Source: Elsinoe ampelina (lineage: Eukaryota). From it: 58,781 nucleotides of DNA. A program made the position numbers and the translations under genes. Positions 3,934 through 58,781 of this stretch are shown in pieces; within the stretch, counting starts at the first letter, position 1; each line of letters begins with the position of its first letter. The stretch lies in the NCBI GenBank assembly GCA_010093995.1, contig ML992504.1, forward strand, positions 1,849,394-1,908,174, in the 5' to 3' direction. Under the pieces are notes generated by a model that saw nothing but the letters and a program-made list of their open reading frames with translations, searched no databases and was not told where the DNA came from.

Positions 3934-4007
3934 ATATATAAGATAGAGATTTATATACTACTCTCCTTTATACGCTAAGATAGGCTAGCTTACTAATTTA
4001 ACTCGAT

Positions 4008-6566: not shown

Positions 6567-6576
6567 AAAAAACTAG
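6567..6576 (+). promoter_or_regulatory. Putative -1 ribosomal frameshift slippery site (AAAAAAC) plus stop codon at the gag/pol junction
   Basis: AAAAAAC TAG about 120 bp upstream of the protease motif; matches the X XXY YYZ slippery consensus. RIP could have created some of the A residues. Confidence 0.55.
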
Positions 6577-10492: not shown

Positions 10493-10566
10493 ATTTAGTA
10501 TATAGCGCGTAAAGATAGAGAAGAATACTTACTTGTTAGGATAACTTAATTAAAGAAGAAGAGTAA

Positions 10567-11807: not shown

Positions 11808-12010
11808 TATTAAGTAGAAGGCACATTTAGAGGTGGAATATTATATAGAACTAATTATACACTAATTAGGTAATAGACGAGTTAGTTAATTAAAAGAAGT
11901 CTATCTACTAGAAGAAAGAACAGCTATAAATCCCTAGGCCTTAGCATTATATAACTTAAAGTTATATAACTTTATAGCCTAATTATCTAGAGAGAGCTAT
12001 ATTCTTAACA
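11808..12010 (-). repeat. Nested Copia 3' LTR
   Basis: 203-bp direct repeat of 24785-24987. Confidence 0.93.
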
Positions 12011-15000: not shown

Positions 15001-15060
15001 TAGGTTAGATATATATACTTAGTCTATAATATAATTATAAACTAGATAGTAAGAAATGCT

Positions 15061-18000: not shown

Positions 18001-21000
18001 GAGTTCTATATTAATTGCTAGAATAATCTATTCTCTACTTAATTCTATAAAACTATTAAAATTGTTAGCTGTCTACTCTACTAACTAGATATACTACTCG
18101 AAGAATAGCTAGCTATATAAGCCTAAAAAACATAGTAGCCTATAATATTAATAGGTAGTAAATTAAGAGTTAGCGGAATACGAAACTTACTAAACTAGAA
18201 TTCTATAACTCGCTATAGAGTTATTTAGGCTAACTTTAATAAAGGTACTAAGCTTGCTAATAGAACACCTCTCGTATATTGTCTCTACTATAGTAGAGCT
18301 TTATAACACCTAATAATAAACTTGATTAGTAATAAATACCTAATAAAACATCTCGGATGCTAAAGCTACTAAAATATAAAATCTTCTAGCTATAAATAAT
18401 TAGTAGCTTAGATAGCTCTAATATAATTAAATACGAACGCTACTAGTACTATATTCTATATACTATAATTCTCTCTAGAACAATTTAAAAAAGAGCTTAT
18501 TAAGGTCCTTATTAATTATAATTAGTTATTCTAAATAGTCGATAATTCCTCCTTTCTCTAATTTATATATTTCCTCTAGCTATATACTAATATTCTAGGT
18601 TAGACACGGGCCTTAAAGCTATTAAAAGAGCACTATAAGGACATTTAGTCTAATCTTCTTACTAATCTTAGTAGTTAGATAAAAGTTTTAATTACGCTAG
18701 ATAGCTAGTCTACGAATAACTATCTAAGTTTTATAGCTATAAAGGTATACTATATTAATAACAACTAGTAAGTATATAAGTGCCTACTAGATTTTATACT
18801 AATTAGTAAACAGTATACTAGAGTTATGCTTAGCATAGAACTACTAAAGGTTCTAAATGAAAAAAAGATTAACATATACCTTCTTACTATTATAGTAGAT
18901 AATATAAGTAACAATAACACTCTATAATCTAAAGTATAATAAGATCTTAAGAAGAAAAGTATATACTAGTCCTCTATTAAGAATATAATTCTATATCTAG
19001 CCTATGTAATTAATTTTATTATATAAGATATTATTTAAGCCCTATAGCTAGAAACTACTAAGGACGATAAGAAAGCTAATAAGCTTAAGAAGTAGTATCT
19101 CTATAACATCTAAATAACTCTATTAGTTTCGAATTCCCTCTATAAAGTAAGTTATATTTCTTATAGTTCTTTCTTATAGTTTTTTAACTAATTTTAAAGC
19201 TCTATATAATTTGTATTATAATTAACTAATCCCCTTAACGCTACTAACACTTTAAATCTCTTTAAGTATATCTACCTCCTCGTAAACGACTCTTAGTCGT
19301 TTAGGACGTTTATATCTATTAGAACTTAATATATAATATATATAAGCGAGCTATTAAACTTTAACTAATTATTAATAAATAGCTTAACGTAGAGATTATA
19401 ATTATATATAAGCCTTAAACTAATAAAGCGCTAGCTAATTAAGATATAGCATCTATTAATTATATAGATATAAAACACCTTTACCTTAGCTATACTAAAT
19501 AGGCATATCTAAAGATTATTATCTAAATACTAGAGAATTTTAAGGATGTAACTAACTAGCTAAGTTAGTCTTATACGCTATTAGTACAATATATATAGCT
19601 TATATATAATACTCTTTTTGACTTTCTTAACGTAGTTAAGTCTACTTAGGAAGAGAATAATAACTTAGACTAGCTATTAGTTATATAAAATATAGTAAAA
19701 GCTAGTTACACTAAGCTTTCTAAGTATTATAAGTAAATAAGTAAAGGTTAAGGTTTCCTGTTTAATTATAGCATAATCTTAAATCTAACTTAGAAACTTA
19801 GTATATATAAGTATACTTCGTAGGAACTACATTTTAAATTACTTTACTATAAATAGTTCCTTAACTATCTTAATTACTATAATAATAACTACTCTTCTTA
19901 AACTACTCTCCTGCCTCCTCTACTAGCCTTATCTATTACTTACTAGTTTAAGAAGCCTTCCTTATTAAACATAGAGAGTAGCTTTACACCTCTAGTATTT
20001 AGCTAAGATAATACACTTTTATAAGAGTAGAGCAATATTTATATAACAAGGATAGAAGAGAAGAATTATCTTAGAACTTTACCTATATAAGAAATATTAG
20101 AATTTAATATTCTTTCTTAGTAGAAAGAAAATAAGTACTTATTCCTACAACTAGCTCGTGTTACTTATAATATTCTTATAATACTAATCGCCGGCGTAGG
20201 TGTTAAATATGTTTTTAATATAGCGAAGAATATTATTAGTAATTAAAGACATAGACTACTTCTATAGATAATTTAACAAATTATAGTCTCTAAGCTAGTA
20301 GAAAACAATCTTTAAAACATCTAATCGGCTAAGATAGACAATTTTACTACTACTAATAATAATACTAATAGCGGAATAGATAGTATAAGTAACAACTTTA
20401 GAGATATTACTACTTATAGTTTAAGCGATAAAGAGGTTAACAAGGAAGAAGAGTATAATAAGGACAAAGATCTACTATATAACATTACTAAGGTTAGAGG
20501 CTAGTATTCTAAGCGTATCTAGTTAATAGCCTCTAAGCAATAACGCTCTTATAGTATCTATGCTAATACTTACTCTAAAGCACTTCTACGTATACCTTCT
20601 CTATTACTATATATAATTCTACCTACTAATACTAATAGTCTTCCTTTGTTAGCTACACTAAGGAAGCTTATTCCCTTACCCGCTAGTATCTTTAATATAA
20701 CTATATTTATATCTATGTTAGTTATACTAGATTCGCTTATAAAAACGTTAATAAGGAAATTATATAGATCGACTATAATATAAAGGCTAAAGCTATAACT
20801 AATCTCTACGCTACTCTTCTTATTATTAACCTTAATAACTATCCCTACTATAGTACCTACGACCTTAGCTAACTTATTACTAACGCTACTCTCTACGCTA
20901 TTACTAATATCTACCTTATTATACTCTCGACTTCCTTACTAGGTTTAAGCCCGATAATAGTTAAGTTACTTTCTAGAATAATACTAATAGTAAAGAGAAT

Positions 21001-22906
21001 AATAAGGGAGGTACTTCTACTACTAGTACTAATAGTGCTACTTAGGGTAGTAATATAACTACTAGTGTAGCTAGAGGTAATATAAATACTCTTACTTTAA
21101 GAGCTTATATATGCCGTTGTTATAGTTAATTTTAGCTACTTACGAGAAGAGGTAATATAATTAAGTCTTTATAAAGTATAAGTCTATATTATTAATAACT
21201 ATCTAAAGCTATTAGCCTATTAACGCTTTAACTACGCTACCTTAATTAGATTAGTTATTAGAAGAAATACTATTATTACTATCGTTAATATAATCTAACT
21301 CCTTCTACTTATATTTAATATTATAGCGTATAGTAAAGAGTAAGAGTAGATCTACTCTTCTGTCGAGAATAAGACAATTAATAGTACGCTATATGTTAAT
21401 TAGGTTAAAGATGTTATTAGTCTATAAGATATTATACTAATATTTGTTAGATTATAGAGAAAGATTAGATTAGAAACACCTATAAAGTTATAAGGGGTAT
21501 TATAAGTATAGTAGGCTTTATAGTAAAGTACCGAATCTCTATAGTTATTATAGATATATTTAGCCTAGATTTCGTAGTTGTTATTAAAGTTAAAATATAT
21601 AAGAGTTATATAGTAGATATAGGCTTTACACTAACGTAGGTATAAGAGCCTAGCGTAGTTACTAGGAGTTATCTTATAAGGCTAAAAGGGAATTAGATCT
21701 ACTAGGTCGGAGTAGAGTTAAGCGTAAGAAGGAGGCATTATAGAAAGTAGTATTAAACGATAAGAAAGAGAAGTTTAAGAGGAAGAAGAAGAAATAGTAA
21801 CTAAAAGGTATATATATCTAGCGTTACCTATTATAAGAACGACAATATAGATAATAGCTATTGTCTATTATAAAAAAACAATAATACTAACAATAGCTAT
21901 TATTAAATAATAGCTATTATTATACTAAGGGATATAAGTAGATTATTAGCTAAGTTACTTCTTTCTCTCCTTAGAAACATTTAAATAACTATCTAGTATA
22001 CCTTTACGTCGCTATAGTATAACTTATACTAATAGTTGCTAGAATTTAAGTAAATCTACTACTATGTCTACTACTTACCTCTCTATTATTCGTTAGGCTA
22101 ATATTACTTACTATAAATTTATTAATAACCTTTAGATAGAGATTAAGGCCCTAGATAGCCTTATACTTACTATTAACTAGTAATCTAATAGTATTAAGGC
22201 AATTCGTAACTATACTATAAGTTAGTAGAAAGGCTAAACTACCTAGAACTAATTATTCTAGTCTTAGACTCTACCCGATAGCTTTAGTACTTCGGTTTAC
22301 TAGTTAAGAGTTATAATTTATATAAGGGTAAACTTACTAAGGATAGAATGTCCTCTAGATAAAGTAGATAATAAGATAATAAAGTATTAGTTCTAGGTAG
22401 TATATAGCTTACTAGCTAAGTATATAAAATAGACTTATAGGGGTTATATAGATAATGTTAATTAGGTTAATCTTCTATAAATTACTATTAGGTCGTAATT
22501 ATATATAAGGGTTAATAATTAATAACTTTTGCTTCTCTCTAGTATCCTTTATCTACTATAACTTTAAGTGTTTAGAGTAGAAAAGTAATAAGAGTTATAG
22601 GACATAGTAGTTACTATAAGAATTTACTATAAGAATAGTAACCCTAGTATAGTGCTAGTAAAGGTACACTAAGGACTTAATAGCACTACACTACTTATCT
22701 ACCGACCTAACCTAGTACTATACTACGTCTAGAATATACATAACTCGACCTATACCTAGTACTAGTATAGTACTATTATAGCTATAGTACGGAGCTAGTA
22801 CTAGTACTACTAAGCCCTTAGTAGTACTACGCCGGCTAGAAGCTAACCTAAACCCTAGTATAGTACTAAACCTAAAGGGGCTAACCCTACTCTAATAGTT
22901 ACACTA
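15061..22906 (+). mobile_element. hAT-family DNA transposon, 7846 bp, RIP-inactivated
   Basis: TIRs tagtgtaactattagggtagggttag / ctaaccctactctaatagttacacta, imperfect 8-bp TSD gaaatgct/taaatact, and subterminal arrays of tagtacta-like palindromes at both ends. Transposase relics: BED-finger-like region near 18270-18370, ITLD(GW)S at 18691, (C)LA(H)VIN near 18991, and C-terminal dimerisation motif ILS(WW)KEN..LF(P)QLAR.....L.I(P)IAGVGV(E).VF near 20110-20220. Confidence 0.88.
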
Positions 22907-24784
22907 TAAATACTAAATTCTAATTAGCTAGATCTAGAATTAAGCTAGGCTTAGATCTAGAATATAGCTTTTAATTAGCTAATTACTTAAAGAGGAATTA
23001 GATAATATATAACCCCTCTCGAATTCTAGCTTTAAGTAATAGTTGCTTTTACTAATTAAGGATAAGAAAAGAATTTAAATTAAGAACTCTAGAAACCTCT
23101 AAATCTAAGTATAGCTTATAATAGAAGACTAAATTTACACTAAGATTAGGTATATAAAGAGCCTATACCTTTATCTTATCTCTCTTCTTAGTCTTAATAA
23201 CTATAGTTTCTATTAACTATAACTAAAAGTGACCCCTCCTAACCTAGATCTATTAAGTGCGAATCTTACTTAATAGGCCTCTAAAGAGAGTTAGCTTGTC
23301 TATTATATAGTTAGATACTCTAGAGTTAAGCATCTACTAATAGTGTAGAAGCTTACCTTAAACCTCTAATATAGAACCTATAGTCTTAAGCTCTTTATTA
23401 CTAGAAAGGACTTCTAGTAGTAGAGATAGAGATATTAATAGTAGACCTTCTTTAGTAGCTAGATAGGCTTTACCTTTCCTCTTTAACTTAGCTACTTTAA
23501 GAGAGTCTATTCTCTTAGTAAGCTACCTTATAAGTCTAATTAGTTTCTAACGTTTAGGTAACTATCTCCTTATAGAGCTACTTCTTTTAGTAACTCTATA
23601 GAATAGCTAGATATACTTCTTAGCTTATTAGAGATAAAGACACCTAGAAATAGTATATCTAGGTTCCTTATATAGGATATATATATAGCTTAAGCTTCTA
23701 CTAGTTCCTTATTATAGTCTGCCTCTTATAAATATTACTATATCTAGCTTCTTTCTCTAATCCTCTTTCTCTCTTAAAATGCTTAGAATAGTTTTAATAT
23801 CTAGCCTAGGCTAGATATTAATACTATCTCTAATAGATTACTAAGATTCTAGGAGAGTACTAAGGAGTTACTATAGCTTAGTAATAGGGAGTTCTATCTA
23901 CCTAGCTTTAGGTATAATATAGATAATCCTTCTTACTAGCTAAGTTAGATATACTTAAGCTTCTATAATAGAGGTCTTCTCTAATATAGTATAGTTAGAG
24001 AACTCCTTTATAAGCTACCTACCTATAGATATAAGCCTCTTAGTGTATTTAGCCTTAAGTATATTCTATACCTACCTTACTCTTGTCTTGCCTTAGATAA
24101 GAAGGTTATTCTTATAGTTAATATAAAGCTTAATCTAGTATAGACAAAGGGCATTAGCCTTTCTAGTCTATAGTAAATACTAGGACTAAGCAATTAGTAT
24201 AGAGGTAGTTAAGAAGGATAGTATATTTAATAAAGAAGCTATTAATAATAATAGTAAATTAAAATTAGCTATGTTATTATTAAGGATATAGGTAACTTCT
24301 TTTATCTTAAGTTATAATTTTATTATACTAAACTAGTGCTTATAGTTTTTATAGCTAAGTTCGGCTATAGGCTTTCTAATTAATAATATATCTATAGTGG
24401 AGAATAAAAATTAAATAAATAAATAAAGGTCAAGTTCTAGAGGTTAATAACCTTTAAGTTAATATAGTTAATAAGGCTAGCTTAGCCTTAGAAGGAACAA
24501 TTAATAAAAACAAAGTTGTTTAGTTATTTATAGCTAATAAATAGTAGCTATTATACAATTATAGAAATAAATCTATAGTAGACATCTTAATTATATTCTA
24601 CTTAATGTACTAAGTAACTAGTCTTTTACGCTTTATACTACCTCTACTAATCTGTCTAAGATTAAGATAATAGAGAGGAAACGGAGGAGAATACTAATAG
24701 AATCTAGCCTAATTTTAATAACGTAGATACTTAACTACGATATATATAATCCTATACTTGTGCTATAGCTCCGAGCTTATAACC

Positions 24785-24987
24785 TATTAAGTAGAAGACA
24801 TATTTAGGAGTAGAATATTATATAGAACTAATCGTATACTAATTAGGTAATAGACGAGTTAGTTAATTAAAAGAAGTCTATCTACTAGAAGAAAGAATAG
24901 CTATAAATCCCTAGGCCTTAGTATTATATAACTTAAGGTTATATAACTTTATAGCCTAATTATCTAAAGAGAGCTATATTCTTAACA
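24785..24987 (-). repeat. Nested Copia 5' LTR
   Basis: 203-bp direct repeat of 11808-12010, adjacent to a PBS-like motif. Confidence 0.93.
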
Positions 24988-26173
24988 CTAACTAGGGAAT
25001 AGAATATAGGCTACAACTATTAAGACTCTAAGTGCTAGTAGCTATTAAATACCCCTCTATATTATTCTTAAAGGTAGTAATATTAATATTAATTAAAGCT
25101 ACTAGCTTACTTAACTATTACTATAAGATAGTATATAAAATAGTAAGATAGTAGTATTATAAAATAGCTAGTTAGATAAGAATTATACTATTAAGTAGTT
25201 ATATCTTTTTTGTAAGTATATAAGACCTTACTATCTAAATTTAATAAAGGAGGTAAAAGAGAAGAATCTCTAGCACTATAAAAGGCTACTTATTATAGAT
25301 AGCTATAGTATATACGAATTACTTCTCTTTTTATTACTTACTTAGAGTAAAGGCCTTATCCTTCTTATTCTCTCTATATACTTAATATACCTTCTTTAGC
25401 CTCTTAATATCTTAATCTTTATAGCTCTAAAGGCTAGCTATCGATATAAAATCTAAGCTAAAGTATACTAAGTAGTTAATAAAATTATATATGTTAATTT
25501 TATTAAGGCCTATTTAAATATTTATAATATTACTTTTAATTATAACGCTTAACTTAACGCTTTTAAAGCTGCCGGAATTTAGCTTTATAATTTATACTAA
25601 GTGCTTAATTAACTTAATAGTCTTATAGCCTTATTCTTTTAAGTCTCCTTAGATAGCTCTCTACTAGACGTTACTCCTTTTACTCTTAATATTACGCCTT
25701 AAACTTAGTATTATTTCGACTATTAGCTTAGCTACTTATAGTACCTTAGCGACCTTATAGTAGAAGTAATAGTAGAGAAGTTATAAAAGAAGTATAGTAT
25801 TACTACTAACACTAATATACTTCTTTATAAGAGAGTAGCTAAGTTAGAGAAAGAGGTAAGAACTAAAAAGGTATAGCTTAAGAATTATATAAAGGCTAAC
25901 ACGTAAGTACTTAATATTAAAGACTTAATTAAAAAGTATAAATAGTAATAGCTACTTAAATAGCTTAAGGAGGAGGCTTATATTACTTATACTTAGCGCT
26001 AGTAAGCTTAAAAGCACTAATAATAGTATAACACTATAAGTCGCTCTTTAGCTATAAAGACTTATAAACTTAAATAGTATAATTTACCTATAAGTAATTA
26101 AGGTAGTAATACCTTAACGCTATATTCTAGTATAATAATTATAAGAAGAGAATTAAGCCTTTAAAAGCCTTAT

Positions 26174-42481: not shown

Positions 42482-44143
42482 CTACATGGGAGTCGCCAAT
42501 GGCGTATCCTCCTCCACGAACCTCTCCAAGTCGCCAATATCAGCAACATCGAACCCATCGAACCCCTCCTCAACCACCCATCTCTGCACAGGCTTCTGCA
42601 GCACTTCGCACGCCCTCCCTACGACGAGTAGACCTGGCGGCCGACTCCCCTCCTCCTCTATCGCAGCACAGACATACTCCAACGTTGTCCTCACTACCCT
42701 CTGATCTGGACAGCTTGCTCTTTCCACTACAGCGCAGGGTGTAGTGAGGGGCCAATCCTTTCCGTTCTTCACGAGACTATCGACCAGGTCACCCAGCCGG
42801 TGCAGAGCCATGAGAAAGACGCAAGTCTGATTTGGAAGGTAAGATGGTGGATCGGGAGCTGCTCCCTTCCTGCCCGTGCCGGTGCAGACGAGGACTTGGT
42901 CGCTCACACCTCTGTGGGTGACGGGGATCTTGGCGAACATGGGCGCTGACAGAGCTGAGGTGATGCCTGGCAAGACAGTGACTTTGAATCCATGCTTGGT
43001 GAAGAAGTCGTACTCTTCCGCACCACGTCCGTATAGGTATGGGTCTCCTTGCTTTAATCGGAGCACTGTTTGTCCTTCTCTTGCAGCGGCCAAACCGAGC
43101 TGGAGGAACTCCTCTTGCGCGGCGTCGGCGTTGCCTGGGAACTTGCGGGCGATGCGGACGGGGGTACGGCGGGGGATTAGGTCGAGCACGCCGGCGGGGA
43201 CGAGCTTGTCTGCGAGGATGAGGGATGCGGAGTTTATGGCTATCAGAGTAAGGTTCGTGAGGAGATCAGGATGGCCGGGTCCGGAGCCTGCAAGGATGAT
43301 ACGGCCGGTCCGAGAGCGCGAATCCAGCTCGGCAGGCGACAGGATGACAGACTCGGTCGTGGGAGCCAAGGACCGTGTTTCCGACTTGTATGAAGCAAGT
43401 ATCGAAGCAACGTCGTTGTCCGTGATGCTCGCAAGTCTCTTCAAGGGCCAGTACTCACATATTTGAGCCAGCCAGCGCATCCGTCGATTCCGAGCCGCCT
43501 CAATGTCGGACGGGGTAACGAGGCGATTGAATGACGACGACTGTCCAGAGACTTCATCCTCCTCCTCAAGATCAGAAGTCAAGCCCAGAGCGTGATCTTC
43601 CTCCCAAATTCGTCTTCGAAGTATACCAAGTCTCTCCACAGCTGGTCCTAGATCTGGAGGCAGGGTCGACGCGATCTCTCGCCGTATACGCGAGGCCATC
43701 TTACAGCCCTTACCCGAGGTCGTGACGCCAATCTGAACGGGTCCATTTGTGTGTGATGACAGAAGCGTAAAGGTGCAGAGATTTGGGGCGTCTGCAACGT
43801 TGATGGGTATCCTGAGGCGTCGACAGAGGGAGGATATGTGTGTGCTCAGCGCTGACTTGCCGCCAGACGTGACGAAGACGGCGTCCACGACATGATCCAC
43901 CTCTTCTCTGCCGAGTGTGGTGAGGTCCGAGTCGCTGAAAGGACGCTTTATCCACTCAACCTTTCCTTCATCCACGCTCTTTGCCAGTCCATAATGCAAG
44001 CTCGCGTCCGCCGCGGCGATGAGCTTGGGGACGGCTCCTACATCTAGCGATTTGTTGCATCTGGCTCCAGCGAGAGGATTCGACCCGATGATCAAATGTA
44101 CGTGATGTTGGGAGTCGACTGCTGTGAGCAATGAAGGCGGCAT
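42482..44143 (-). CDS. MET1: Uroporphyrinogen-III C-methyltransferase / siroheme synthase (Met1-like), 553 aa
   Basis: N-terminal CysG-like domain (INVADAPNLCTF, GKGC) and tetrapyrrole methylase motifs LAGSGPGHPDLLT, ADKLV, RLKQGDPYLYGRG.EE, PGITSA and IPVTHRG. Confidence 0.93.
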   Translation of the reverse strand: MPPSLLTAVDSQHHVHLIIGSNPLAGARCNKSLDVGAVPKLIAAADASLHYGLAKSVDEGKVEWIKRPFSDSDLTTLGREEVDHVVDAVFVTSGGKSALSTHISSLCRRLRIPINVADAPNLCTFTLLSSHTNGPVQIGVTTSGKGCKMASRIRREIASTLPPDLGPAVERLGILRRRIWEEDHALGLTSDLEEEDEVSGQSSSFNRLVTPSDIEAARNRRMRWLAQICEYWPLKRLASITDNDVASILASYKSETRSLAPTTESVILSPAELDSRSRTGRIILAGSGPGHPDLLTNLTLIAINSASLILADKLVPAGVLDLIPRRTPVRIARKFPGNADAAQEEFLQLGLAAAREGQTVLRLKQGDPYLYGRGAEEYDFFTKHGFKVTVLPGITSALSAPMFAKIPVTHRGVSDQVLVCTGTGRKGAAPDPPSYLPNQTCVFLMALHRLGDLVDSLVKNGKDWPLTTPCAVVERASCPDQRVVRTTLEYVCAAIEEEGSRPPGLLVVGRACEVLQKPVQRWVVEEGFDGFDVADIGDLERFVEEDTPLATPM

Positions 44144-44524
44144 GATTGTTGTTGGGAAGGCGAAGTCGGCGTTGGAGGGGCAGGGTGGGGGTTGTAAGAG
44201 AGAGAGAGCGGTTTGCTGGTGATGCGAATGGGAACTCGTAGCTACTAGTCAGTCTCAGCAATGCACGAGCCGTTTTGAGCCTCTCAAAGTGTAGATAGGC
44301 GGGTCGAGGCAATTATGTAGCAGCTTGTCATTTGCTGATAAGCCATTGGATGCCATGGGAAATGTTTTTTGGCCATCGGAGATCCGCAGCGATTTGCTCC
44401 GACACCGCGGAGATGCTCTCGGCTATGTATATGGTGGCATTCTTTAATGCCGCTTTTTGCTTTTTGTCTCAAGGACAGAACCACTCAGCTTGGACTGGCA
44501 GAGAAAAGAAAGTCATGTTGACTG

Positions 44525-45478
44525 TCATGGTATTTCTTCCTCGTGCCCCATTACGACGTCTAGAGCTTTTCGACTCAACGCCACGGTGTGTTCCAGCGCG
44601 GACAGCTTCGCGAGGGCAGCCATCAAGCTGGGATCTTGTGTTTCAATCTTGAGCTTTTCCCTGACCTTGACCAATTGGTTGCGATACGTAAAGACCTCGT
44701 CTGCCTCATCGTGTCTAGGCGCTGGGGGTGCTCCTAGAGCTTGCGCCAGACGATCTCTGATACTCAGCCCCGAGTATGTCTGTGAATAGGTGGAATTTGG
44801 TGTAGACGCTCCAGTGCTGCTGCCTTCTGGTGCTGGCTCAAGTGTGCGTACGGTAAACACTAAGCCGGCATCTGCAATAGCAAAGTGTAACGACACTGGG
44901 CCTGGCAGAGGAGGGTCGAATATCTGCTTCGCTAGTGGTGCCTCATGCCATGTCTTGACCGTGTCCGTCCCTCCTTTTAATTCGTCCCTCGCTTCCTGGA
45001 CATTCTCATGCAGCAGCCGTAGTTGACTTGATATGTACCCGGCATTGTTGGCATCACCAGTCCATCTTGTGGCGTCGACAACGTCGAGAGAATAGTTCAA
45101 TAAAGTGCGCGCGGATATGAGCTGATCCACGACCAAGGCGGGAGCTGTAGGAGAGGAGGATATGGCTAGGCGATAGCTGGGCTGACCGCTAACCCGAGGG
45201 AGGGAGGACATGCGCAGGTGAATGTCGCCTTTTGTGATGCGTGCGCCATTGAGTGTGACAAAGCCTTTGAGGCTTTCGGATCGCTGAGATGATAGCACGA
45301 GTGTCGAACCAGAGTCGCGTGGCGCGAGAAGGGCTGAGCATTCTTCGAGGCCGGCTTTGATCGATTGGAGTGTTTCTTGTAGAGCGGACAGCAGCCATTC
45401 GAGCTCGCGCGTAAGGCACGATTGTCGTTCCTTCTCGAGCTGATCCGCAGGTGCAGGCGGCCATATAGCTGTCGACAT
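44525..45478 (-). CDS. RAV2: RAVE complex subunit 2 / Rogdi family, 317 aa
   Basis: RELEWLL..LQETL.SIKAGLEEC..LL.P...STLVLSS.RSE.LKGFVT..G..I.KGD and C-terminal VREKLKIETQDPSLMAALAKL.ALEH are typical of fungal Rav2/Rogdi proteins (recognised from memory). Confidence 0.85.
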   Translation of the reverse strand: MSTAIWPPAPADQLEKERQSCLTRELEWLLSALQETLQSIKAGLEECSALLAPRDSGSTLVLSSQRSESLKGFVTLNGARITKGDIHLRMSSLPRVSGQPSYRLAISSSPTAPALVVDQLISARTLLNYSLDVVDATRWTGDANNAGYISSQLRLLHENVQEARDELKGGTDTVKTWHEAPLAKQIFDPPLPGPVSLHFAIADAGLVFTVRTLEPAPEGSSTGASTPNSTYSQTYSGLSIRDRLAQALGAPPAPRHDEADEVFTYRNQLVKVREKLKIETQDPSLMAALAKLSALEHTVALSRKALDVVMGHEEEIP

Positions 45479-46961
45479 GGTGGGGCCGGAATCAGTACGC
45501 TTGAGGTTGAAGTGGAGGATGGATGCTTGGTGCTGCGGTTCTTGACGACGGAAGCTCGGATCGAATCCGGCCCATTCGGCCTCGTTGCTACACTCGTGAA
45601 GGGTCCATTTCGCGTCTATATCCCGTAATGCTCCCTAAACGTACGACTACAACATGAGCAAGGTCAGCTTGGATGAGGCATAACTTGCTATTAGTCAATC
45701 CCTCGTGCAGTGGATATCCGACACATTGCAGATTTCGTCAACATAAGGGTGGGAAACAAGTCAGGACGCGCGCGAGTGCGATGTCACCAATTTGAGAATG
45801 GTAGACTACTTCACAAAGCTCAATCAACATGAGATTGGCAGATTTGCGTCCTACATGATCTATCTGTACTACAGTGAAGAGGATTCTGCATTCGACAATG
45901 GCCCACGGTCATCATTCACTCGATTCTGTAAGTTACCGGTAGAAGATCAATGCCGCCCACATGCTGCGCATTTCTCGATAAGACGACTATTTTAGCAGCA
46001 CGGTTGCTGGCTCGAGACACAAGAACCCATCACGCGGTTGAGCAGAGTACTGTGAGCTTCCTGCGATATAAAGTGATGGTCTGATCCGCGAGGTAGATAG
46101 GTCGATAAAGTAAGGTGCCTCACAGTGCTGTGTTGTGGCCAAGCGCAGAGAAACTATCCCCTCGGATTCGTCTTGTCAGTCCGGCAATGGCCTATGGAAA
46201 CAAACAACGCGTTGGAATTCCAGGCGCGTGAAAGCCGCTACTACAGTACAGTAACTACACGCTTTCTTTACCACAATTAGGCTATGCGACGACCGCTGAC
46301 AGCCAAGACACTCATCAGCGCGAAGGACCTTGGCGCCGGACCCCCTGTCAGCCGCATCGAAAACGTTCCATATTGTCAACCCGGACGCCCTCACCTCTGA
46401 GGCAACAACCTAGGCCCGACTGCTAGCTAGCGGCTGGAAGTCATCTCAATATGGCTGTGTGGCATTACCCCGAAAATCTAAAGCTACAACTTCGACCCAG
46501 CTCAGGCGTAATGTGTACCGGGAGATTTGCTTCAAAGTCATCGCACTGGTGCCCTCGTGTATTGTGCCATCCTGACCAGTATTCAGGATGTGCTTTTCAT
46601 TTACTTCGTATGCAAAGGTCATCGTTCCATTTGGCATTATTGCCCCATCTGGACGCGCCCGACCGCGCTAATATGAGCACACGCAACAGTATGTTGACTG
46701 CTGAAGTGCTCTGCGCGTGTGGAGTGAAGAGGGAGGTTCCCCTTGTTCCACCGATACGGCACAGCACAACGTCGCACACTCATCCCCTACGGTGCAGATT
46801 GCGATACCCGATGCGCTGATGGCTTGCCGCGGACGGCATGCGAATACATAAAGAGGGGATTGCCTCCTCTTCGCAGCCTCATCACAATCACAAACAACAG
46901 TTCTGCAACCCTTCTCTCAAGTCCGTCTTTACCCGAAACGACGTACCATATCACACTCACG

Positions 46962-47969: not shown

Positions 47970-48121
47970 GCGAGAGATGAGCATTCTTCGAGGCCAGCTT
48001 TAATCGATTGGAGTGTTTCTTGCAGAGCAGAGAGCAGCTGTTCGAGCTGCCGTGTGAGGCATGATTGTTGTTCCGGCTCGAGCTGGTTCGCAGGTAAAAG
48101 TGGCCAGATAGCTGTTGACAT
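47970..48121 (-). pseudogene. Truncated, diverged duplicate of the first about 50 codons of RAV2
   Basis: MSTAIWPLLPANQLEPEQQSCLTRQLEQLLSALQETLQSIKAGLEECSSLA aligns with RAV2 MSTAIWPPAPADQLEKERQSCLTRELEWLLSALQETLQSIKAGLEECSALL; similarity then stops abruptly. Confidence 0.9.
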
Positions 48122-48934
48122 TGGCGCGAGCTGGATTGAATTGTTGCGCACGTCGCGACAGTCAAGACAGCTGCACTATGGTAGGGAGAAATGAGTCATG
48201 TGTCGACGACTGTCGAATGATTATTTCGATTCGTGCAGCACACAAGTATCATTACTTATCATATGCCGGAATAGTCACAAATCACCAGAAGCATGAGCTC
48301 AAGCATTCACTCCTGCTCCAATCAGACAACCTTTATCGGGAGTCAGTACTTGTGAACGTTGAACCCCCAAGATACCTAGCTCTCAACTTCTGAGCTGTGG
48401 CCTGCACTTCGTCGGTCACGGCGATGAGACATCTGGACACATCCACGTGATGGTCACGCTCAAAGTCGGAGCGATACACTTTGCAAAGACCACAATCCTG
48501 TCGGGCTGCTCAGAAATAAACGGTATACAAGCGCCATCGGTGCAGCCACACTAACCAAGTCGAGGCGCACCACGTCCCAGCAATTGACATGGGCGAGCCA
48601 CGCGTGACGCATGCCGGATGACGATCAATTGAGGCTTTGTGGCAGCACTCTTTGGGATGGGTCAAACCTTGAAGATGTCGGGGTTCAGAGATTGTTTGTG
48701 TGGTTGCGAGGTAGTTGCTGCTCAGAGCTCTGTGCATTTGTGAACATTGACGAAGGTGTTACTGCCGAGTCTCACGAGTCTCCTGTCCGCCTTTAGCAAG
48801 GCTTTGTGGGCTACTACCATGCAATATGCAAGTACAATCAACCACAACTCGACGGCCCATGTGAATCTAGCTCACATCCAGTCGCTTGATGCCGACGGTT
48901 CGGCGTTGACCCGGCTGCGGGACGACGTCATTCC

Positions 48935-49074
48935 TGTTGTACTTGGCAAATCGGATCGAGAGACGTGTGTTTCATTCAGAGAGTTACAATAACCGATTAT
49001 CTACTGTGCGTGTGCTGACTCATCAGTACCAGTCCTTCAGTACCAGAGAAGCTGTACCAGCTTAAGTTACAACA
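48935..49074 (-). repeat. Copia 3' LTR
   Basis: TGTTG...CAACA; differs from 55603-55742 at one position. Confidence 0.97.
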
Positions 49075-49395
49075 CTCCCCCTCTGGTATAGATTGTTGAA
49101 GCTGAAGAACTGGCCTGTCACATGTGACTAAGGTGATTAGGTCATTACCTCATCTTATATGCTTGCTTGTGATTGTTAGCTTAAGCTAATCATTGGTGTT
49201 GATTCACCTCTAAATGCTTGTAAAAGGTCAGTAGCAATAGAAGCCTTTAATAATAGCTAGGCATCCATTGTTTATGTAAATAGTCTAGCTTATAAATCTC
49301 TATCAAAGAAGATATAAATAACTAGCTAGCCTCCTTATAATTTCTCTTTCCTTTATTACACTTATAGTAATAGCCTCCTCTTTTACACCAATTTA

Positions 49396-50538
49396 ATAGC
49401 TTCTAATACATTAGTTAACTTCTTTAACTATGCTTAACTCCCTTGTATAAGTTCTACTAGGGATAGAGTTGTCCTAACTAAGGCTTAGATTGTTATTGTC
49501 CTTGATATAATAAAGAGAGTTATTAAGTTACGTAGCCTTATAATCTCTATAAATAGCATTATTAGTGTCTCCTTCTTTCTCCGCTCTTTAAAGAAGTCTA
49601 GAGCGCTTAAGAGACTCTCTAGTCTAGCTTAGACTCTACATGTTAAGGCTTTTACTAATAGAGACAGAGCTTATAATATAGTAGTTGCTATTAACATAAC
49701 TAAGGCTAATAAGCTTATTAATATTAGTACTAAGACTTCTACTAACAAGTACTACTTACTAGCTATCTTAATACATTATATAAGGGGTAGAACTATCTAT
49801 TTAAACCTAACCTACTACAATGTTAAGATTGCTAACGGCACTTACATCTTAAAGACTTTTAAGACTTATGTAATGTTCTAGCAGATTTATAGAGGTGCCT
49901 ACACTAACTGTATATACCCTAACAAGCGTAACAAGTGCAACTTCTAGTCCTAAACTTCTAAGGATATCTTCTTCTAGAGCTAGGGTCTCTCCCTAAAGAA
50001 GACTACTTAGCCTTTAACTCCTACTAGTCTATCTACTCTAACTAGTCCCTTAGGTAGTTTATCTTATAGTTGTCGCTCTTCTACTACTAGCTTTGCTTCC
50101 GGAGTGACTAGAAAGATTTCTATAGACCTAATTAGAGACACTAATGTCCTAAGGCTAAGGTAGGCTAAGGACAAATACTTTATTCCTACCCTAGCTCTAG
50201 CTAGATTTAAGCTATAGAATCCTAGCACTTAGGCTAGATTTGTAGCTAAGTTTAGGGACTATGCCGACAATTGTAACTTAATCTAGAGGAAGCTAATAAG
50301 GGGTAACAATATAGTTAGGCTATAGATATATAGGTAGGGCTTAGAGCTTAAGGAATAGGAGAGGATCCTAAGGAGCATATCTAATATAAGCTTGTCTCTA
50401 ACTCCTAAAGGGACTCTACTAACTACTAAGTCTAGTAGTAACAAGGGAAAGGGGAAGAAGAGGAGTAGTTCTAAGTCTAACTCTAAGGGCTCTCTATAGA
50501 AGAAGAAGTAGACTTACTTAATAGGCTATAGTAGGTGA
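49396..50538 (+). pseudogene. Antisense accessory ORF relic (about 380 codons) in the Copia 3' region, with DUF3716-like Cys motif and basic C-terminus
   Basis: One frame from ATA (ATG reverted) at 49396 to TGA at 50536-50538, interrupted only by TAG/TAA. It contains TF(E)T(C)VMF.QIY(G)GA(C)TNCIYPNKRNKCNF near 49855-49944 and KGKGKKR...KKK near the end. Confidence 0.72.
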
Positions 50539-53500
50539 ATTAAAGGCGGCCTTAGTGGCTTAGGATAGTAGATAGTAAAGGTGTTATAGTAGAGAATAGT
50601 GGATTAAGCTTAGGCTTAAGCAGCTAGTAATATAGTAGAGATAGCTATTTCCTTTCTCTCTTTTTAATAGTAAAGCAGTAAATACTACTTATAAGCTTTT
50701 AACAAATAAGATAGCTTAATAAGTGTAATAGTATAGTATTATACTTTAAATAACAATACAAATGAAATCTAAACGAGTGTATAGTGCTAAAGAGCACTAA
50801 CTAACTAGCCTTATAATTAGTAAAGGATCTTGTTAGGAGACTTAGGCTTAGTAAGTGCATTAGCCAATTACTTAGTTGTGTTAATATACTCTAGCTTAAT
50901 AGTACTAAGCTTATGTTGCTCCCTATAGTAGTGGTTCCTTAGATTAACATGCTTTAATCTTCTTAAGTTAGTATAATCTTTAGCTAGCTTAATAGCTAAC
51001 TTGTTATTAATAAAGATCTTAACTAGGCTAAGGTTAATATTAGTAAGGGGCCTAAGTTTAGTGACTAAATTTCTGAGCTAATTAACTTCTCTATAGGTCT
51101 TAGTTAATGTAAGATACTTAGCTTCTATACTTAATAACACTATAACCTTCTAGAGTCTTAACTTCTAGATAATAGGTGTACTAAGCATATAGATAATAGT
51201 CCTAGTAGTTAATCTTAAGGTCTTATTATTACTAGCAAAGTCAGAGTCTAAGTAGGCCTAAATAGTATTACTAAGGGAGCTATTAGTCCTCTTAAAGGTA
51301 AGGCTATAATTGATAGTCCTATTAACATATCTCTAGATCTGCCTACCTGTAATAACATAAGCTACTAAAGGATTTTATAGGAATCTAGCTAAGTAATTAG
51401 TAGCATAGCTAATATCTAGCCTTGTATTGTTAGCTAGATACTATAGCTTACTAATAATTATATTGAACTTTTAATAGTTATTAGCATTAACCTAGCCATA
51501 ATTTAGTCTATAGATCTTGTTAATAGGATGCTTAACTATTCTTACATAGAGAAGGTTATAACCTTTAAGCTTCTCCCTAGTATAGTATAATTGCTTAATC
51601 TTAATTATATCCTTAGTTCTATAGAGTTAAACACTAAGGAAGAGGTTAGAGTTTATAACCTTCATAGGGAATTTAGTATAAAGATCTTAAACTAGCTTAT
51701 TAGCATGTTTCTACTAAGTGGCAATAATTCTAAAGTTATCTACATATACTAACACAATATAGAACTTGCTAATAAAGAGACATATATCACTCTCTAACCT
51801 AGTAAAGCTAAGTAACTTAAGAGCTTTAATAATAGCCTTATACTAGAGAGCTACTACTTGCTTTAGGCTATAGAGTCCCTTTATAAGGATAATAAGCTTA
51901 TTAGCTAAGTCTTTAATTAGGACTCCCTTAGGGCAGCAGATGTAGTTCTTAAGATTAATATCTAGCCTAAGGAATGTAGTAATTATATTAGCTATTATAA
52001 TTACCTAGTTGTAATAGAGGGCATATATAAGAATAACTCTTCTAGTTTCTACTCTTAGTGTTAGAGTAAAGGTCTTAACAAAGTTAATGCTAGCTCTTTA
52101 TATAAAGCCTCTAGCTGTCTATCTAGTCTTAAACTTGTCAATAGAGCTATCTAGTAGCCTCTTAGTCTTAAATACCTATTTTCCAGTTATTGGTCTATAT
52201 CTAGCTAGGGCTTAGGATCTCTTAATAATCTTAAAGGTTCTAGTCTCTATTAATAAGTTAAACTTAGCCTTTATTGCAGCTTTCTAATGTTTGGCCTTAG
52301 GGCTTAAAAGAGCTTCTTTTACAGTTTAAGGGTCTAGCCTAAAGGTATTAGAGGATCTACCTCTAGTAATAGTAGTAGCATTCCTAATTACCCTACTAGA
52401 ATTAAGTGTTCTATAGTCTATCTAACGATATAATCTTAGTAATCTTCTAACTAATCTTACTAATAATAGTAGAGGTGATGTTAATCTTCTTCTTTTTCTA
52501 GTAATAGGAGTTATATAGAATAGTGTTATAAGTATATTAACATCCTCTATAGTTGTTAGTATAAGTAGTTAGTTAGCTATGTGTTTAGGTAGGTCATATA
52601 TTAAGTAAGACTCTCCTAGTACTTCTAGTAGAAGTGTAGTAAGATCTTCTATAATATGATCTTTAGTAGGAGGCTCTAATTAAGGCTCTCTCTAATTATT
52701 AGAGGGCTTAGATTAAGGCTCCTCCTGTTCTTAGATAGGATAAGGTAATTAGAGTAGAGTTTAAGCTTTAACTTAGGGGTTATTACTTCCTAAGGAAGGG
52801 TCTTTAGCCTAAGTGTTATAGAGGTCTTGTTAAAATTAATAATCTAAGGTTTCTAGATTCTTATAACTAAATTGTGTATTGTTTTGTCTAATAAATGTCT
52901 ACTCCCCCTAAAGCTATAAAGCCTTAGGTCTAGCAGTCTATAGATTCTTTGTCTATAGGATATATAGTTGTTTAAGAGGCATATAAGACTAATCTAGATA
53001 TGTAAGGTCTTTATTAAATATAACATAAGGAGTAGTAAAGAACCTGTTCTTCTATTTGCCCTTAGTTTAATACTAGTATAGTTGCTATATTAGATAGTTA
53101 GTAGTGGAATTTCTTTGTATTCTAATATACTATCTAAGCTAAGCTCTTACTTAGAACTTGTGTAATCTTAGGACATTATAATTATAGATATATACTCTAC
53201 ATCTAAAGCGTCTAATGTGTAATACTAAGATAGAATTAGTAGTGATCTTTAGGTCTTTATTAAGGACCTAGAGTAGTATCTTCTTAGTTTTAGTGTAAGT
53301 AGTTCTATTAATAACATAGATAGTAAATTCAATAACTAGATTCCAGAATTCTAGGGGAATCCTATAGTCAATAAAGATGCATCTTGTCCTTATAATAACA
53401 ACCTTATTAGTTAATTCTGCTCTACTATTCTAGTAGTAGGTATATAGTAATAAGATATTCTATCTCTAAGTATAATGCTAGATCTATACTCTAAGCTTAA

Positions 53501-55602
53501 GGCTAGAGAATTTACTACCTCTATTAGATATCTAGATAAAGAACACCTTATTATAGGTATTCTTGTTGTATATATAAGTATACTTAATGAACTTAATTAC
53601 TTTATCCTTAGTTATAAGGGGACTAAAGCTCTTAAAGTTACTCTTTCTATAGGTTATAAAGATATTATACCTGTGGCCTTAGTATAACTATAGTTTAATT
53701 AGCCTAACTAGGTTAATATAAAGCTTATCTAGTAAGCAAGCTAGTAGTGTTCTTAGTTCTCTTAACATAACTTGTTATACCTTTAAAACCGAGCATAGAA
53801 TATAGTGCCTAAGTTTAGATAATAAGAACTTTTCTATTCTAGTAGTAAGGTTCTTTATATATGTTATTACTACACTTCTAGGGTGACTAAGCCTTTAGTG
53901 CCATCTCTTAGATGTCACTTTAGTAGTTCTAGCCATAGCTAGATTTGCTATAATAAAGCTTAGGTCCCTTTTAAGAGTAGAAGACTTATATATGTATATG
54001 TTATTATTACTCTTATAAACCTTAAAGTCTTAAAGCTACTTAACATCTCTATCTACTTTAAGAGTTTCTACTTCTTTATTGTCTTTATTAAGGAGTTAAA
54101 GCCTAATAGCTTTAATGCTATTCTTCTTTAAGACTTTGCTATTAGAGATAAGATTATAGAGAGATAAAGGAGAATAGATGTAATTAATAAGAGTAATTAT
54201 AGTCTTCTTACTAGCCTTGTTTAATAGGGTTAGAACTACAGTTCTAACCTCTATATTAATAAGGCTTTAGGTTCTAAGTGCCTAATTAAGTTTAAGGCTC
54301 TTCTTTATAGTGTAGATATCTATAAACTATAACTTATTATTAATAAAGTGTCTTAATGCTCCGGAGTCCTAGATAACATTAGATCTCTTTATCTTGCTAT
54401 TTAATAAGGACGTAATAATAGTAGCTTAGCTATTGCTATAGATAAAGTCTTTATTATTATGTTTATTAGATTCTCTCCCCTTAGGTTAAGTATTATCCTC
54501 TACTACTAAGTAGCCTTTTGCTTTAGATAACTTCCCTTTAGTCTTACCTTTAGAGTTATTCTTAGTCTTGTTATTGCCTTTAGCCTTCTTATCTCTCTTG
54601 CTACTCTATTCTTTAGAGGCCTTTTTAGGATACTACTTATAGTAGTTAGCATTTAAATAGGCATAGTAAGTGCATTAGGTGTATTAGTCTTTAATGTAAC
54701 CTATAGCTCTAAATGCTATATTGTTTCTTCTATTAAGGGGTAGTCTTTCTCTCCTTAGAGAGGCTATTATTACCTCAAGTAGTGTGTTAGGATTAAGTAT
54801 AGATCTCTAATTCCTAAGCTATTTAGCCCTCTTAGTGCCTATTACAAAGAGTGTTATAATATAGAAATTAGGGAGGCTATAAAAGTGTGCTACTTAGCTG
54901 ATAGTAAGAGTCTTTTACTTAGCTATAATGTTATATTAGTGAATACACTTCTAGAAGTCTTTATAGTACCTTAGAGTGTCGTTGTTAAAGGGAAGCACTA
55001 CTTAATAGAGCTTTCTAATAGATTAGTAGAGTTCATACACTACTATTAACTTAAATGTGGCCTTAATAGTTATAATAAGGTCCTTTATAGTCTTTAGAGT
55101 AGTTCTATAATAAGGTCTAACTAACTTATAAAGCCTAGACATAATAACACTATATACTATTCTATCTAACTTTTGCTATTCCTTAATCTTAACTTTATAT
55201 ATAGCGCTTGTCTTACCACCTTTAAACTCGATTAGATTAGGCTTTAGCTTCTTGTTTACCTAGTTAAGGTTATTAAACATATAACTAATAACATCTTTCT
55301 TAATAAGGGTAACCTCTAGAGTTAATCTCTAGGCATTGTAGTTACTTTCTCTCTTAAGTATTTAGGTTTTATAGACTTTGCTTAAGCCTTCTAAAGACAT
55401 AGTAATTAGCTAGAAGGCGATAGATAGTCGCTTTTAATTAGTTTGTTAAGCCGTTTAATGAAGGATAAATGCAGGCTACTGCAGGTGTTTGTCCTAATGC
55501 AGCTAGTCCAGAATTTAGTGTGGGTTGATAATCCTTTTTGATAATAACACGCTTAATTTGCTACAGATTCGAGTGCTTTAAAGAAGCGCCGGGCTTATAA
55601 CC

Positions 55603-55742
55603 TGTTATACTTGGCAAATCGGATCGAGAGACGTGTGTTTCATTCAGAGAGTTACAATAACCGATTATCTACTGTGCGTGTGCTGACTCATCAGTACCAG
55701 TCCTTCAGTACCAGAGAAGCTGTACCAGCTTAAGTTACAACA
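55603..55742 (-). repeat. Copia 5' LTR
   Basis: TGTTA...CAACA; 139/140 identical to 48935-49074 by eye. Confidence 0.97.
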
Positions 55743-55955
55743 ATTCCTCGCGGGAAATCTCGAGGAATTTGCTTGCGTCTTGCGTCACAGGTTGCGTCGC
55801 CCAAAAGCAGGAAAATCCACAGCAGCAGCTCTGCCTTGATATACGCCCTCCACCAGCTCTCAATTCCTGCGTTTCCGATGCATCGTTAGGCCTCTGTCCT
55901 GTAATCTCACATACCCTTCCTAGCTCGTTTCAAAAAGAGACCACAGCCGTCCACA

Positions 55956-56810: not shown

Positions 56811-57245
56811 AGAGTATGTCCACGATTCAGCATGAGCGAACCCTCAGCGTCACTCCGCCTTATCATCACTCGACACCTAGCCCGATAATCTTTGCAAGTC
56901 GACCCAGTGCGATAGTCTTTCGATCAAGCGATGGCGTTCTTTTCACGAGCCTGAAGGATGTCTGATACGATTACCTCTCACGATGTACCATATTGCGTGT
57001 AATCCTAGGTATAATTTCAACATGTTATTACTGAAGAGTGCAAGGCTATCTGTATGTCTTCAACAATGATGCTGAACATCTCCTTGGCAAGGCTCACAAC
57101 ATGATGAGCCTATCGTTAAATGCAGAGATCATCAAAGACATGGATCCTCAGACCAGCTGCCACGCTGCTCCCTTGCTCCTTCGGCCACTCCGCTAAATCT
57201 GGTCCATTTGCGGGGAAGTGCATGATCGACCGGCAGCCAAGATCT

Positions 57246-58781
57246 TATTATAACTAGCAAATCGGATCGAGAGACGTGTGTTTTATTCAGAGAGTTACAA
57301 TGACCGATTTATCTACTATGCATACGCTAACTTATTAGTACTAGTTCTTTAGTACTAGAGAAGCTATACTAGCCTTCTATTATAATACTCCCTCTCTAGT
57401 ATAGATTATTAAAGCTAGAGAACTATTCTATTATATATAAGTAAAGTAATTAGCTTATTACTTTATCTCTTTATAATTACTTATAATTATTAGTATTAGC
57501 TAATTATTAGTAAGAATTTACTATTAGTTTAGCTTATAATTACTAGTAATAATAGTAACTATTAATAATAGCTAGGCAGCTATTGTTTATATAAATAGAC
57601 TAGCTTATAAGTCTTAATTAAAGAGATATAAGTATCTAACTAGCCTCTTTATAATTTCTCCTTTCTTTATTATACTTATAGTAGTAGCCTTTTCTTTTAT
57701 ATAATACTTTTACCTTCTTACTATACTATATTAATAATACTTATAATATAAGTACTATAGTATAGTAATAGCTAGGTATTAGTAGTATTACTACTAGTAC
57801 TAGTACTCTAAGTAGTCTACTAGGTAGTAGAGATAGTAGTAAGAAGAGAAATCCTCTATTAAAGTTACCTAGTACTTCTAATATTAATTATAATACTACT
57901 ATAAGACTAATTACTTATCTTAATACTCTTAGTAAGTAGCTATAAAGCATTAATAGCATAAGCTAACATTAATAGCCTAATTAACTTAGACTTTAACTTA
58001 ATAGTTAGCCAACATAATCTAGAATACTCTCCTTAGGCTTAGAATAATTAGTTATTATAACTATACTAACTTATATCCTATCTAGAGATCTATAGTAGTT
58101 TAGGCCTTTAGTACCTATAGTATATATCTAGTAGTTACTAATTCTATTCTAGTTAAGAATCTAACTAAGTAAGTTAACCTTACTAGATCTACTAACTACT
58201 CTACTACTTTAATAGCTTCTAGTACTACTAGTAGAGTAGTCTACTATAGTACTAATTACTATACTAAGTATTAGAGATCTAACCCTAGTAATAATTAGAG
58301 TAAGAGTAAGAGTAGTAAGTTTAGTAAGTATATTACTTTATTTAGTTAGCTTAATAAGGCTTATACTTATAGTAACTAATATACTAGATGTTCCTTAGCT
58401 AACTATACTTTAACTCTAAGACCTATTAGCTCTCCTAAACCTATAAAGACCCTAAGTAGCTTAAGGGTTATTACCTAGCCTATTCTATATAGCCTAATAT
58501 ACTTACTAATTAAGCTTCTAAGGTCTATCTCTTTTAGTAGTACTTTACCTTAGAGGTTCTTACTAAGGGCCTATATACTAGAGGTATTATTAGGTATAGT
58601 TAATACCTTAATAACTTATACTAACTCTTACTACTTTATAGTAGTCCCTATAAACTTTATAGATTCTACTAACTTAACTACTACTAAGGTTTATAACTTA
58701 GCTACTATAGTAATAAACTATATAGTAGAGCTTATAAGAATTATAGCTACTAGCTACTCTAGTTAGCTTTCTCCTATTTAT
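57246..58781 (-). mobile_element. Second, related Copia element (3' LTR about 57246-57387 plus 3' internal region), runs off the window
   Basis: LTR homologous to 48935-49074 (shared gcaaatcggatcgagagacgtgtg...cagagagttacaat), followed by a PPT-like ctccctctc and about 300 bp matching 49075-49385 in RIP-mutated form. Confidence 0.9.

Follow-up and report, generated by a model that had tools for sequence, protein, structure and literature searches.

The DNA analyzed here, which we call the window, is a stretch of 58,781 nt from Elsinoe ampelina, and all positions refer to it. GC-rich gene blocks (approximately 50–57% GC) alternate in it with AT-rich blocks (24–35% GC), which lie at 1–27 kb, 49–56 kb, and 57–58.8 kb. 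One of the host genes, at 42482–44248, encodes a product with 90% and 89% identity to proteins of Elsinoe fawcettii and E. australis, respectively. The AT-rich blocks bear the signature of repeat-induced point mutation (RIP). The subject of this report is a minus-strand Ty1/Copia retrotransposon and, in particular, the part of it that lies between the end of pol and the 3′ long terminal repeat (LTR), where an additional open reading frame (ORF) runs antisense to gag-pol. The features of the element are collected in Table 1.

Table 1. Features of the Copia element and of the partial copy next to it (window positions)
Feature	Position	Strand	Basis or remark
Target-site duplication ATTCC, left	48930..48934		Sequence read
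3′ LTR of the Copia element (TGTTG...CAACA)	48935..49075	-	99.3% identity to the 5′ LTR
Candidate polypurine tract	49076..49087	-	Minus-strand purine run adjoining the 3′ LTR; role inferred from position
LTR-proximal non-coding stretch	49088..49390		Common to partial copy B (57386–57699); without coding signal; candidate 5′ untranslated region/promoter side of the antisense gene
RIP-inactivated antisense additional ORF	49396..50538	+	Stop statistics, purine/pyrimidine codon score, sister-copy contigs
DUF3716-like Cys cluster FKTYVMFxQIYRGAYTNCIYPNKRNKCNF	49855..49944	+	Sub-threshold PF12511 match
Basic Lys/Ser-rich tail NKGKGKKRSSSKSNSKGSLxKKK	50437..50511	+	Translation; resembles a nuclear localization signal by composition only
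Spacer between two convergent stop codons, 278 nt	50539..50816		Coding signal absent
gag-pol frame, RIP-degraded, start approximate	50817..55421	-	RVT_2 match; collinear with P0005 and P0006
5′ LTR	55601..55742	-	Repeat alignment
Target-site duplication ATTCC, right	55743..55747		Sequence read
Partial second copy B, comprising an LTR and ~310 nt; sequence beyond it unrelated	57243..57699	-	Alignment

The element is one complete insertion, and both LTRs are flanked by the same five bases. Aligned as direct repeats, 48933–49074 and 55601–55742 are 99.3% identical over 142 nt, and the LTR starts with TGTTG and finishes with CAACA. Read with X at its stops, pol (P0004) forms a single minus-strand frame through the whole interior. 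Its sole Pfam match at E ≤ 0.01 is RVT_2 (PF07727), with an E value of 1.3e-22 and 81 bits against a cut-off of 31.6 bits. A search of 5.8 billion proteins placed two intact polyproteins of Copia type nearest to it: P0005, with 1459 aa and 39% identity, and P0006, with 1496 aa and 35% identity. Both contain the domains PF13976, PF00665, PF07727, PF22936, and PF25597. The three sequences align collinearly, and all of them finish at ...LTKPKSPN plus 3–4 residues. Integrase precedes reverse transcriptase (RT) in one polyprotein, since the alignment places the HHCC and D,D,E regions before the RT. Membership in the GalEa clade was considered and rejected, since the RT motif of the element is of the YVDD type and the conserved hairpin site is absent; the sequence that follows the 5′ LTR, where a tRNA primer-binding site would lie, corresponds to neither of the sites quoted in PMC5445492 for GalEa (a hairpin site) and FunCo1.

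The element has the properties of a RIP-mutated repeat, namely an excess of TpA, a depletion of CpA/TpG, and near-exclusive transitions between copies. The TpA/ApT ratio is 2.41 in the antisense ORF and 1.87 in pol, compared with 0.56 in the host gene at 42482–44248. The LTRs (48935–49075; 44% GC, 99% mutual identity) and the stretch at 49088–49395 are far less RIP-marked than the interior, with (CpA+TpG)/(ApC+GpT) ratios of 0.88 and 1.31, respectively, against 0.38–0.44. The weak marks of the LTRs and the adjoining 300 nt would agree with the tendency of RIP to spare short repeats.

The pol stop codon is found at 50817–50819. Since pol ends at the LTKPKSPN-type terminus of its relatives, and a purine run is present at 49076–49087, the gap between pol and the polypurine tract measures 1,729 nt (49088–50816). 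An initial annotation, made from the letters alone, had estimated approximately 1.7 kb between the end of RNase H and the 3′ LTR, and had contrasted this with less than 100 bp in the other Copia element of the window. Both statements are borne out; in the second element, an ADxxTK-like motif lies at 12099–12116, less than 100 nt from the LTR at 11807–12012. That element occupies 11807–24989 on the minus strand, with 206-nt LTRs at 11807–12012 and 24784–24989 and a pol end less than 100 nt from the 3′ LTR. As its LTRs are 13 kb apart, nested insertions are probably present within it.

The gap contains a plus-strand frame of 381 codons (49396–50538) with 19 stops, which comprise 16 TAG and 2 TAA codons internally and a terminal TGA. 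The other five frames over the same positions have 26–68 stops each. A continuous opposite-strand frame interrupted only by TAG and TAA had been proposed; this is the lowest-stop frame, and its internal stops are indeed of these two kinds alone, but it is continuous only if all 18 of them are read through. For comparison, 1000 dinucleotide-preserving shuffles were generated, and the lowest of the six frames was counted in each. The mean per frame was 41.5 stops (sd 5.8), and in none of the 1000 shuffles did the lowest frame have 19 stops or fewer. At 5.0%, the stop density is similar to the 5.9% of the RIP-mutated pol frame (95 stops in 1599 codons).

Because RIP makes only transitions, it cannot alter a sequence written in a purine/pyrimidine alphabet, and codon usage was therefore scored in this alphabet after training on either pol or a host table. 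The plus frame scored best in both cases (35.8 pol-trained, 30.2 host-trained), followed by the boundary-aligned antisense frame (17.6 pol-trained, 25.8 host-trained). When the score was applied to seven control chunks of pol, the codon phase came out correctly in all 7 but the strand in only 4, so its strand call is weak and it settles phase, not strand. The assignment to the plus strand was therefore based on the stop counts together with the Pfam match described below. The minus frame with few stops (26) is off-phase, and the aligned minus frame has 34 stops; the plus frame alone is favored by both measures. In sliding windows, the codon signal extends from approximately 49390 to 50515 and is absent from 49088–49390 and 50539–50816. 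Together with the sister copies described below, these results support the extra region as a former protein-coding part of the element on the strand opposite gag-pol.

The translation of the frame, in which there are 5 Cys and 19 Tyr codons, includes ...GAYTNCIYPNKRNKCNF..., a middle rich in Ser, Thr, and Pro, and KGKGKKR...KKK close to the end. The two intact Cys (NC.YP......CNF), the Ser/Pro/Thr-rich middle, and the basic end are all present as the initial annotation had read them.

Sister copies of the element are another useful source of information. Contigs from two DNA runs of one sample (X1 and X2) were aligned with the window at 80% likeness. Contigs that differ from the window by 4–7% cover the extra region, and one of them bridges 49076–49445. 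Contig depth, which is not the same as copy number according to the caveat of the tool, sums to approximately 650–870 over the antisense ORF and to approximately 700–900 over gag, protease, and integrase. Since these depths are equal, the visible full-length elements appear to include the ORF. Depth in the flanking 3′ stretch and at the RNase H end is approximately 4000–9000. Segment by segment, the summed depth is 3–40 times higher in 50602–52345, 52782–53435, and 49076–49511 than in the ORF and the region from gag to integrase; this unevenness points to related or chimeric elements that have some segments in common and not others.

The differences between the copies have the expected character of RIP. 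Among the variable places of X1, 358 of 361 are transitions, of which 249 are A>G/T>C and 109 are G>A/C>T. At the 249 places, the window has A/T where the sister has G/C. At least 16 sister differences fall inside the antisense ORF, and among those listed 14 are in a CpA/TpG context. Again among the differences listed, the stop at codon 256 changes from TAG to CAG in a sister and none adds a stop, and in this sense the frame is better preserved in a less-mutated copy, a point on which the initial annotation had staked its reading. Indels show the same distinction, as none is listed in the ORF, compared with five indel sites (50660–50691) in the 278-nt spacer. The initial annotation had also proposed that several TAT/TAC codons stand at former Cys positions. 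In this respect, Tyr codons at 49813–15, 49816–18, and 49867–69 are Cys codons in a sister, and these include the Cys of the ‘F..CV’ motif; the Tyr of ‘GAY’ shows no change among the differences listed. Conversely, the intact Cys of ‘..NC..’ is Tyr in a sister. All of these differences match what is expected of a gene ruined by RIP, and the antisense gene is dead in this copy.

The Cys cluster was compared with Pfam (24,736 families), in which DUF3716 is represented by PF12511, a profile of 59 positions with a gathering cut-off of 22 bits. Four nested fragments around the cluster match PF12511 and no other family, with E values of 0.011 (34 aa, 16.1 bits), 0.024 (47 aa), 0.038 (56 aa), and 0.13 (106 aa). 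PF12511 was matched by 0 of 150 random 47-residue control fragments from the RIP-mutated DNA of the window, and the same controls recovered the true transposon matches RVT_1, SH3_Tf2-1, and Integrase_H2C2. Fragments from the other five frames at the site of the cluster gave no Pfam match (0/10). A further 16 tiles, which covered the remainder of the ORF as well as the stretch upstream, revealed no second domain, with a single match at chance level (Alpha-amylase_C_2, E 0.45). Two Cys of the cluster are intact in this copy, and the ‘F..CV’ and ‘GAC’ positions of the presumed DUF3716 pattern hold Tyr.

The resemblance noted in the initial annotation was thus recovered for short fragments, with negative controls, although it covers half of the profile, stays below threshold, and is lost in the whole frame. 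Several results count against it. The scores of the fragments (12.7–16.1 bits) are below the 22-bit cut-off, and the match is therefore not a family assignment. The alignment is limited to profile positions 24–58 of 59, with the first 23 unmatched, and the whole 381-residue frame matches no Pfam family even at E ≤ 10. The 150 controls included two spurious matches at E 0.041–0.044, so that values of approximately 0.01–0.04 to one family or another arise by chance with fragments this short. Masking the Tyr codons as X abolished the PF12511 match in all four fragments; this outcome is uninformative as X is penalized at conserved columns, and it gives no support to the idea of Cys-to-Tyr replacement. 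A HMMER search of 1.84 billion representative proteins returned no relatives at E ≤ 0.001, and a word-indexed search with residues 100–200 gave four candidates, none of them at E ≤ 10. Furthermore, the match is not an independent prediction, because DUF3716 had been chosen from the same letters. We judge it fairly probable that the cluster is related to DUF3716. A different candidate, hAT-transposase-like clusters retrieved for an 81-residue open stretch (ESM Atlas 0.86–0.91, 122–145 shared features), was rejected, as the values are in the chance range and Pfam offers no support.

We regard it as somewhat probable that the extra region is a RIP-killed antisense accessory gene of the kind found between pol and the 3′ LTR, here in a Copia element, and that it would once have made a nuclear, nucleic-acid-binding protein that acts in trans. 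Between its pol stop and its 3′ LTR, the element would have carried a second gene of approximately 380 codons in antisense orientation, an arrangement referred to as ‘aORF-3R’ (aORF, additional ORF). Before RIP, its product may have combined a Cys-rich cluster, most similar to the second half of DUF3716, with a Ser/Thr/Pro-rich linker and a basic tail. The antisense gene may have been transcribed convergently with gag-pol from its own promoter, located in the LTR-proximal 300 nt or in the 3′ LTR. No RNA run is listed as containing the element, and two further runs, guessed to be RNA, are uninformative on expression; one gave nothing, and the other gave four tiny low-depth contigs (49248–49385, 55536–55579), none of them in the ORF. 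The protein, with its Cys cluster and basic tail, may have bound zinc and entered the nucleus, as the initial annotation had proposed from composition, and would have acted as a nucleic-acid-binding accessory factor in trans on the element. Its role could be in the control of transcription or in the choice of chromatin for integration, from which the element would presumably benefit.

Besides the weak strand call and the limits of the domain match, a number of observations weigh against this interpretation. No ATG survives at the start of the antisense ORF. In the partial copy B, likeness to the element takes in the LTR and ~310 nt beyond it, at 78–85% identity, and stops at approximately 49390/57700, exactly at the start of the ORF. 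Beyond 57700, copy B has no likeness to the ORF even when both are written as purines and pyrimidines (score 42; null 35, sd 4; control with homologous sequence 229), and it carries no coding signal. Hence, the ORF may not be common to everything that bears this LTR; it is covered by sister contigs at the depth of the region from gag to integrase, and copy B, with the same LTR, is without it. There may be LTR-sharing relatives that do not have the ORF, or copy B may have been interrupted at the point of divergence. From there to the window end (58781) runs 1.08 kb of RIP-type DNA that is unrelated and shows no coding signal. A low-depth contig from a run guessed to be RNA extends past 49385 with letters like those of copy B.

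More distant elements were also surveyed. The contigs of P0005 and P0006 hold 1.2 and 2.2 kb of non-pol DNA, respectively. A metagenome scan with these two closest polyproteins yielded 80 loci, all of them distant Copia elements at 24–39% identity. Among 60 loci, 47 had both a match reaching the C-terminus of pol and 400 nt or more of sequence beyond it, and these contained 160 ORFs of at least 90 residues, from which the 10 shortest plus-strand ORFs were dropped. None of the 150 scanned ORFs downstream of pol in these 47 loci matches DUF3716, which is a further point against the interpretation. A tblastn search with the antisense frame against all metagenome loci found nothing below E 2.5. 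One distant Copia locus (L066:5951-7069, minus strand) has an open antisense frame of 373 codons, 790 nt downstream of pol and without a Pfam match, which may be another antisense extra ORF.

A rival history is one in which a host gene of DUF3716 type, or a piece of another mobile element with such a gene, was captured by or inserted into the 3′ untranslated region of one Copia lineage and copied a few times before RIP, with no role in the retrotransposon. Such a passenger remains a live rival, because copy B diverges at the start of the ORF and the distant Copia elements have no DUF3716 ORF among those scanned. In addition, the ORF is covered at much lower depth than either the flanking 3′ stretch or the RNase H end. 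Precedents exist for both parts of the idea, as DUF3716 genes are known in a DNA transposon (accessible text of PMC8232023) and transduced genes occur in one or a few copies according to sections of an aORF review (PMC7264820). On the other hand, the coding signal neatly fills the space between the shared 3′ stretch and the spacer that precedes the pol stop. No terminal inverted repeats or flanking duplications bound the ORF, and a nested class II insertion is thus unsupported. The ORF has the same depth as gag, protease, and integrase, with the reservation that depth is no copy number. Overall, we consider capture of a passenger unlikely.

It is much less likely that the region is a non-coding spacer whose low-stop frame and Cys pattern arose by accident under RIP-skewed composition. 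The 18 internal stops, the lack of a significant database relative, and the sub-threshold Pfam match would be compatible with such a spacer. However, shuffled sequences never reached so few stops, the RIP-invariant codon score picks the same phase with a bounded signal, stops are about as dense as in the true pol frame, one of them is CAG in a sister copy, and PF12511 appears in 0 of 160 control fragments. Coding on the minus strand, as a sense third ORF or a C-terminal extension of pol, is the least probable alternative: a minus frame continuing pol has 26 stops in 380 codons with an open run of 76 codons, and the codon score does not distinguish a frame from the antisense frame with the same codon boundaries (it put 3 of 7 pol chunks on the wrong strand), but both intact relatives end pol at ...LTKPKSPN, this frame differs from the minus frame that the codon score favors (34 stops), no minus frame has a Pfam match at the Cys cluster, and the spacer after pol is without coding signal.

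Other features were recorded in the course of the analysis. A Ty3/Gypsy-type element lies on the plus strand at 4010–10868, with 300-nt LTRs that are 93% identical, and its RIP-damaged fragments still match RVT_1, Integrase_H2C2, and SH3_Tf2-1. Just to the left of the Copia insertion site, 47978–48121 is a 144-nt duplicate (84% identity) of 45335–45478, in the 5′ part of a 369-codon ORF at 44525–45634, and it is not RIP-degraded. A predicted protein of 2132 residues (P0036) combines a Zn2Cys6 transcription-factor domain (PF00172) with Copia gag-pol domains, and is either a fusion or an artefact of gene calling.

Antisense accessory genes of LTR retrotransposons are a useful frame of reference for the preferred interpretation, namely an antisense gene between pol and the 3′ LTR. 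The plant elements named in this context, Grande, RIRE2, Retand, and PvRetro13, belong to Ty3/Gypsy. Antisense aORFs between pol and the 3′ LTR are established in maize Grande (gene23), rice RIRE2, Silene Retand, Phaseolus PvRetro13, and fungal Boty (brtn), as listed in the accessible sections of a review (PMC7264820). According to the same sections, Grande has its own promoter upstream of the aORF, and aORF products are without clear database similarity. Their function is not established, and some products are nuclear or have a domain of DNA-binding type, as described in parts of PMC7264820 and PMC8365987. The plant genes have the same position and orientation as the antisense ORF described here. 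They differ in having plant hosts, and no database similarity is reported for them, in contrast to the weak likeness to a fungal domain in the present case.

The gene brtn is an antisense additional gene of Boty-like Ty3/Gypsy elements in Botrytis cinerea and Sclerotinia (Zhao et al. 2011, Virology 417:248, as cited in portions of PMC7264820, PMC8365987, and PMC4227169). Compared by description only, it is similar to the present ORF as an extra antisense gene between pol and the 3′ LTR of a fungal LTR retrotransposon, whereas Boty is a Gypsy element and the element described here is a Copia element. In the literature searched, there was no report of a fungal Copia element with an antisense ORF; the element-structure supplements of PMC5445492 and PMC8365987 were outside this search and might list such ORFs. 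None of the mentions of DUF3716 in the same literature concerns retrotransposons.

For the domain itself, two comparisons are relevant. REP9 is a 7.9-kb DNA transposon of IS3EU type in Zymoseptoria tritici with two DUF3716 genes, REP9-1 and REP9-2 (available text of PMC8232023). Like the present element, it is a mobile element of a Dothideomycete with DUF3716-type accessory genes beside an integrase-type enzyme, and the REP9 copies of sister species are RIP pseudogenes. It differs in that it belongs to class II and has terminal inverted repeats along with 6-bp duplications, and its genes match DUF3716 in full, compared with the sub-threshold match here. The second comparison is with PF12511 proteins in general, which include PSC58 of F. 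graminearum, described in PMC10776026 as an ortholog of NCU05718, a telomeric-sequence-binding protein of N. crassa. Shared with these proteins is a Cys-cluster segment (profile positions 24–58) in a fungal protein with low-complexity and basic regions; the present ORF differs in being RIP-damaged, below the gathering cut-off, and unmatched over the first 23 profile positions.

If the link to DUF3716 is true, an antisense retrotransposon gene would gain a named and widespread fungal domain. The one reported tie to telomeric DNA binding and the occurrence in a class II element would then provide a testable idea of the function of the accessory protein, and a possible origin for a large family of uncharacterized fungal genes. 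A broader proposal, which we put forward as quite doubtful, is that fungal mobile elements of both classes, with this Copia element and REP9 as cases, have repeatedly recruited DUF3716, as a DNA-binding module, in the form of an accessory gene. Many DUF3716 genes regarded as host genes in Pezizomycotina would then be transposon-borne or transposon-derived, and the protein might steer integration or expression to particular chromatin, such as telomere-like or AT-rich regions. The value of the locus is as a lead, since this copy is dead and the domain call is sub-threshold. Antisense accessory genes as such are already known from the systems above; what is tentatively new here is their occurrence between pol and the 3′ LTR of a Copia element, with a possible domain of DUF3716 type.

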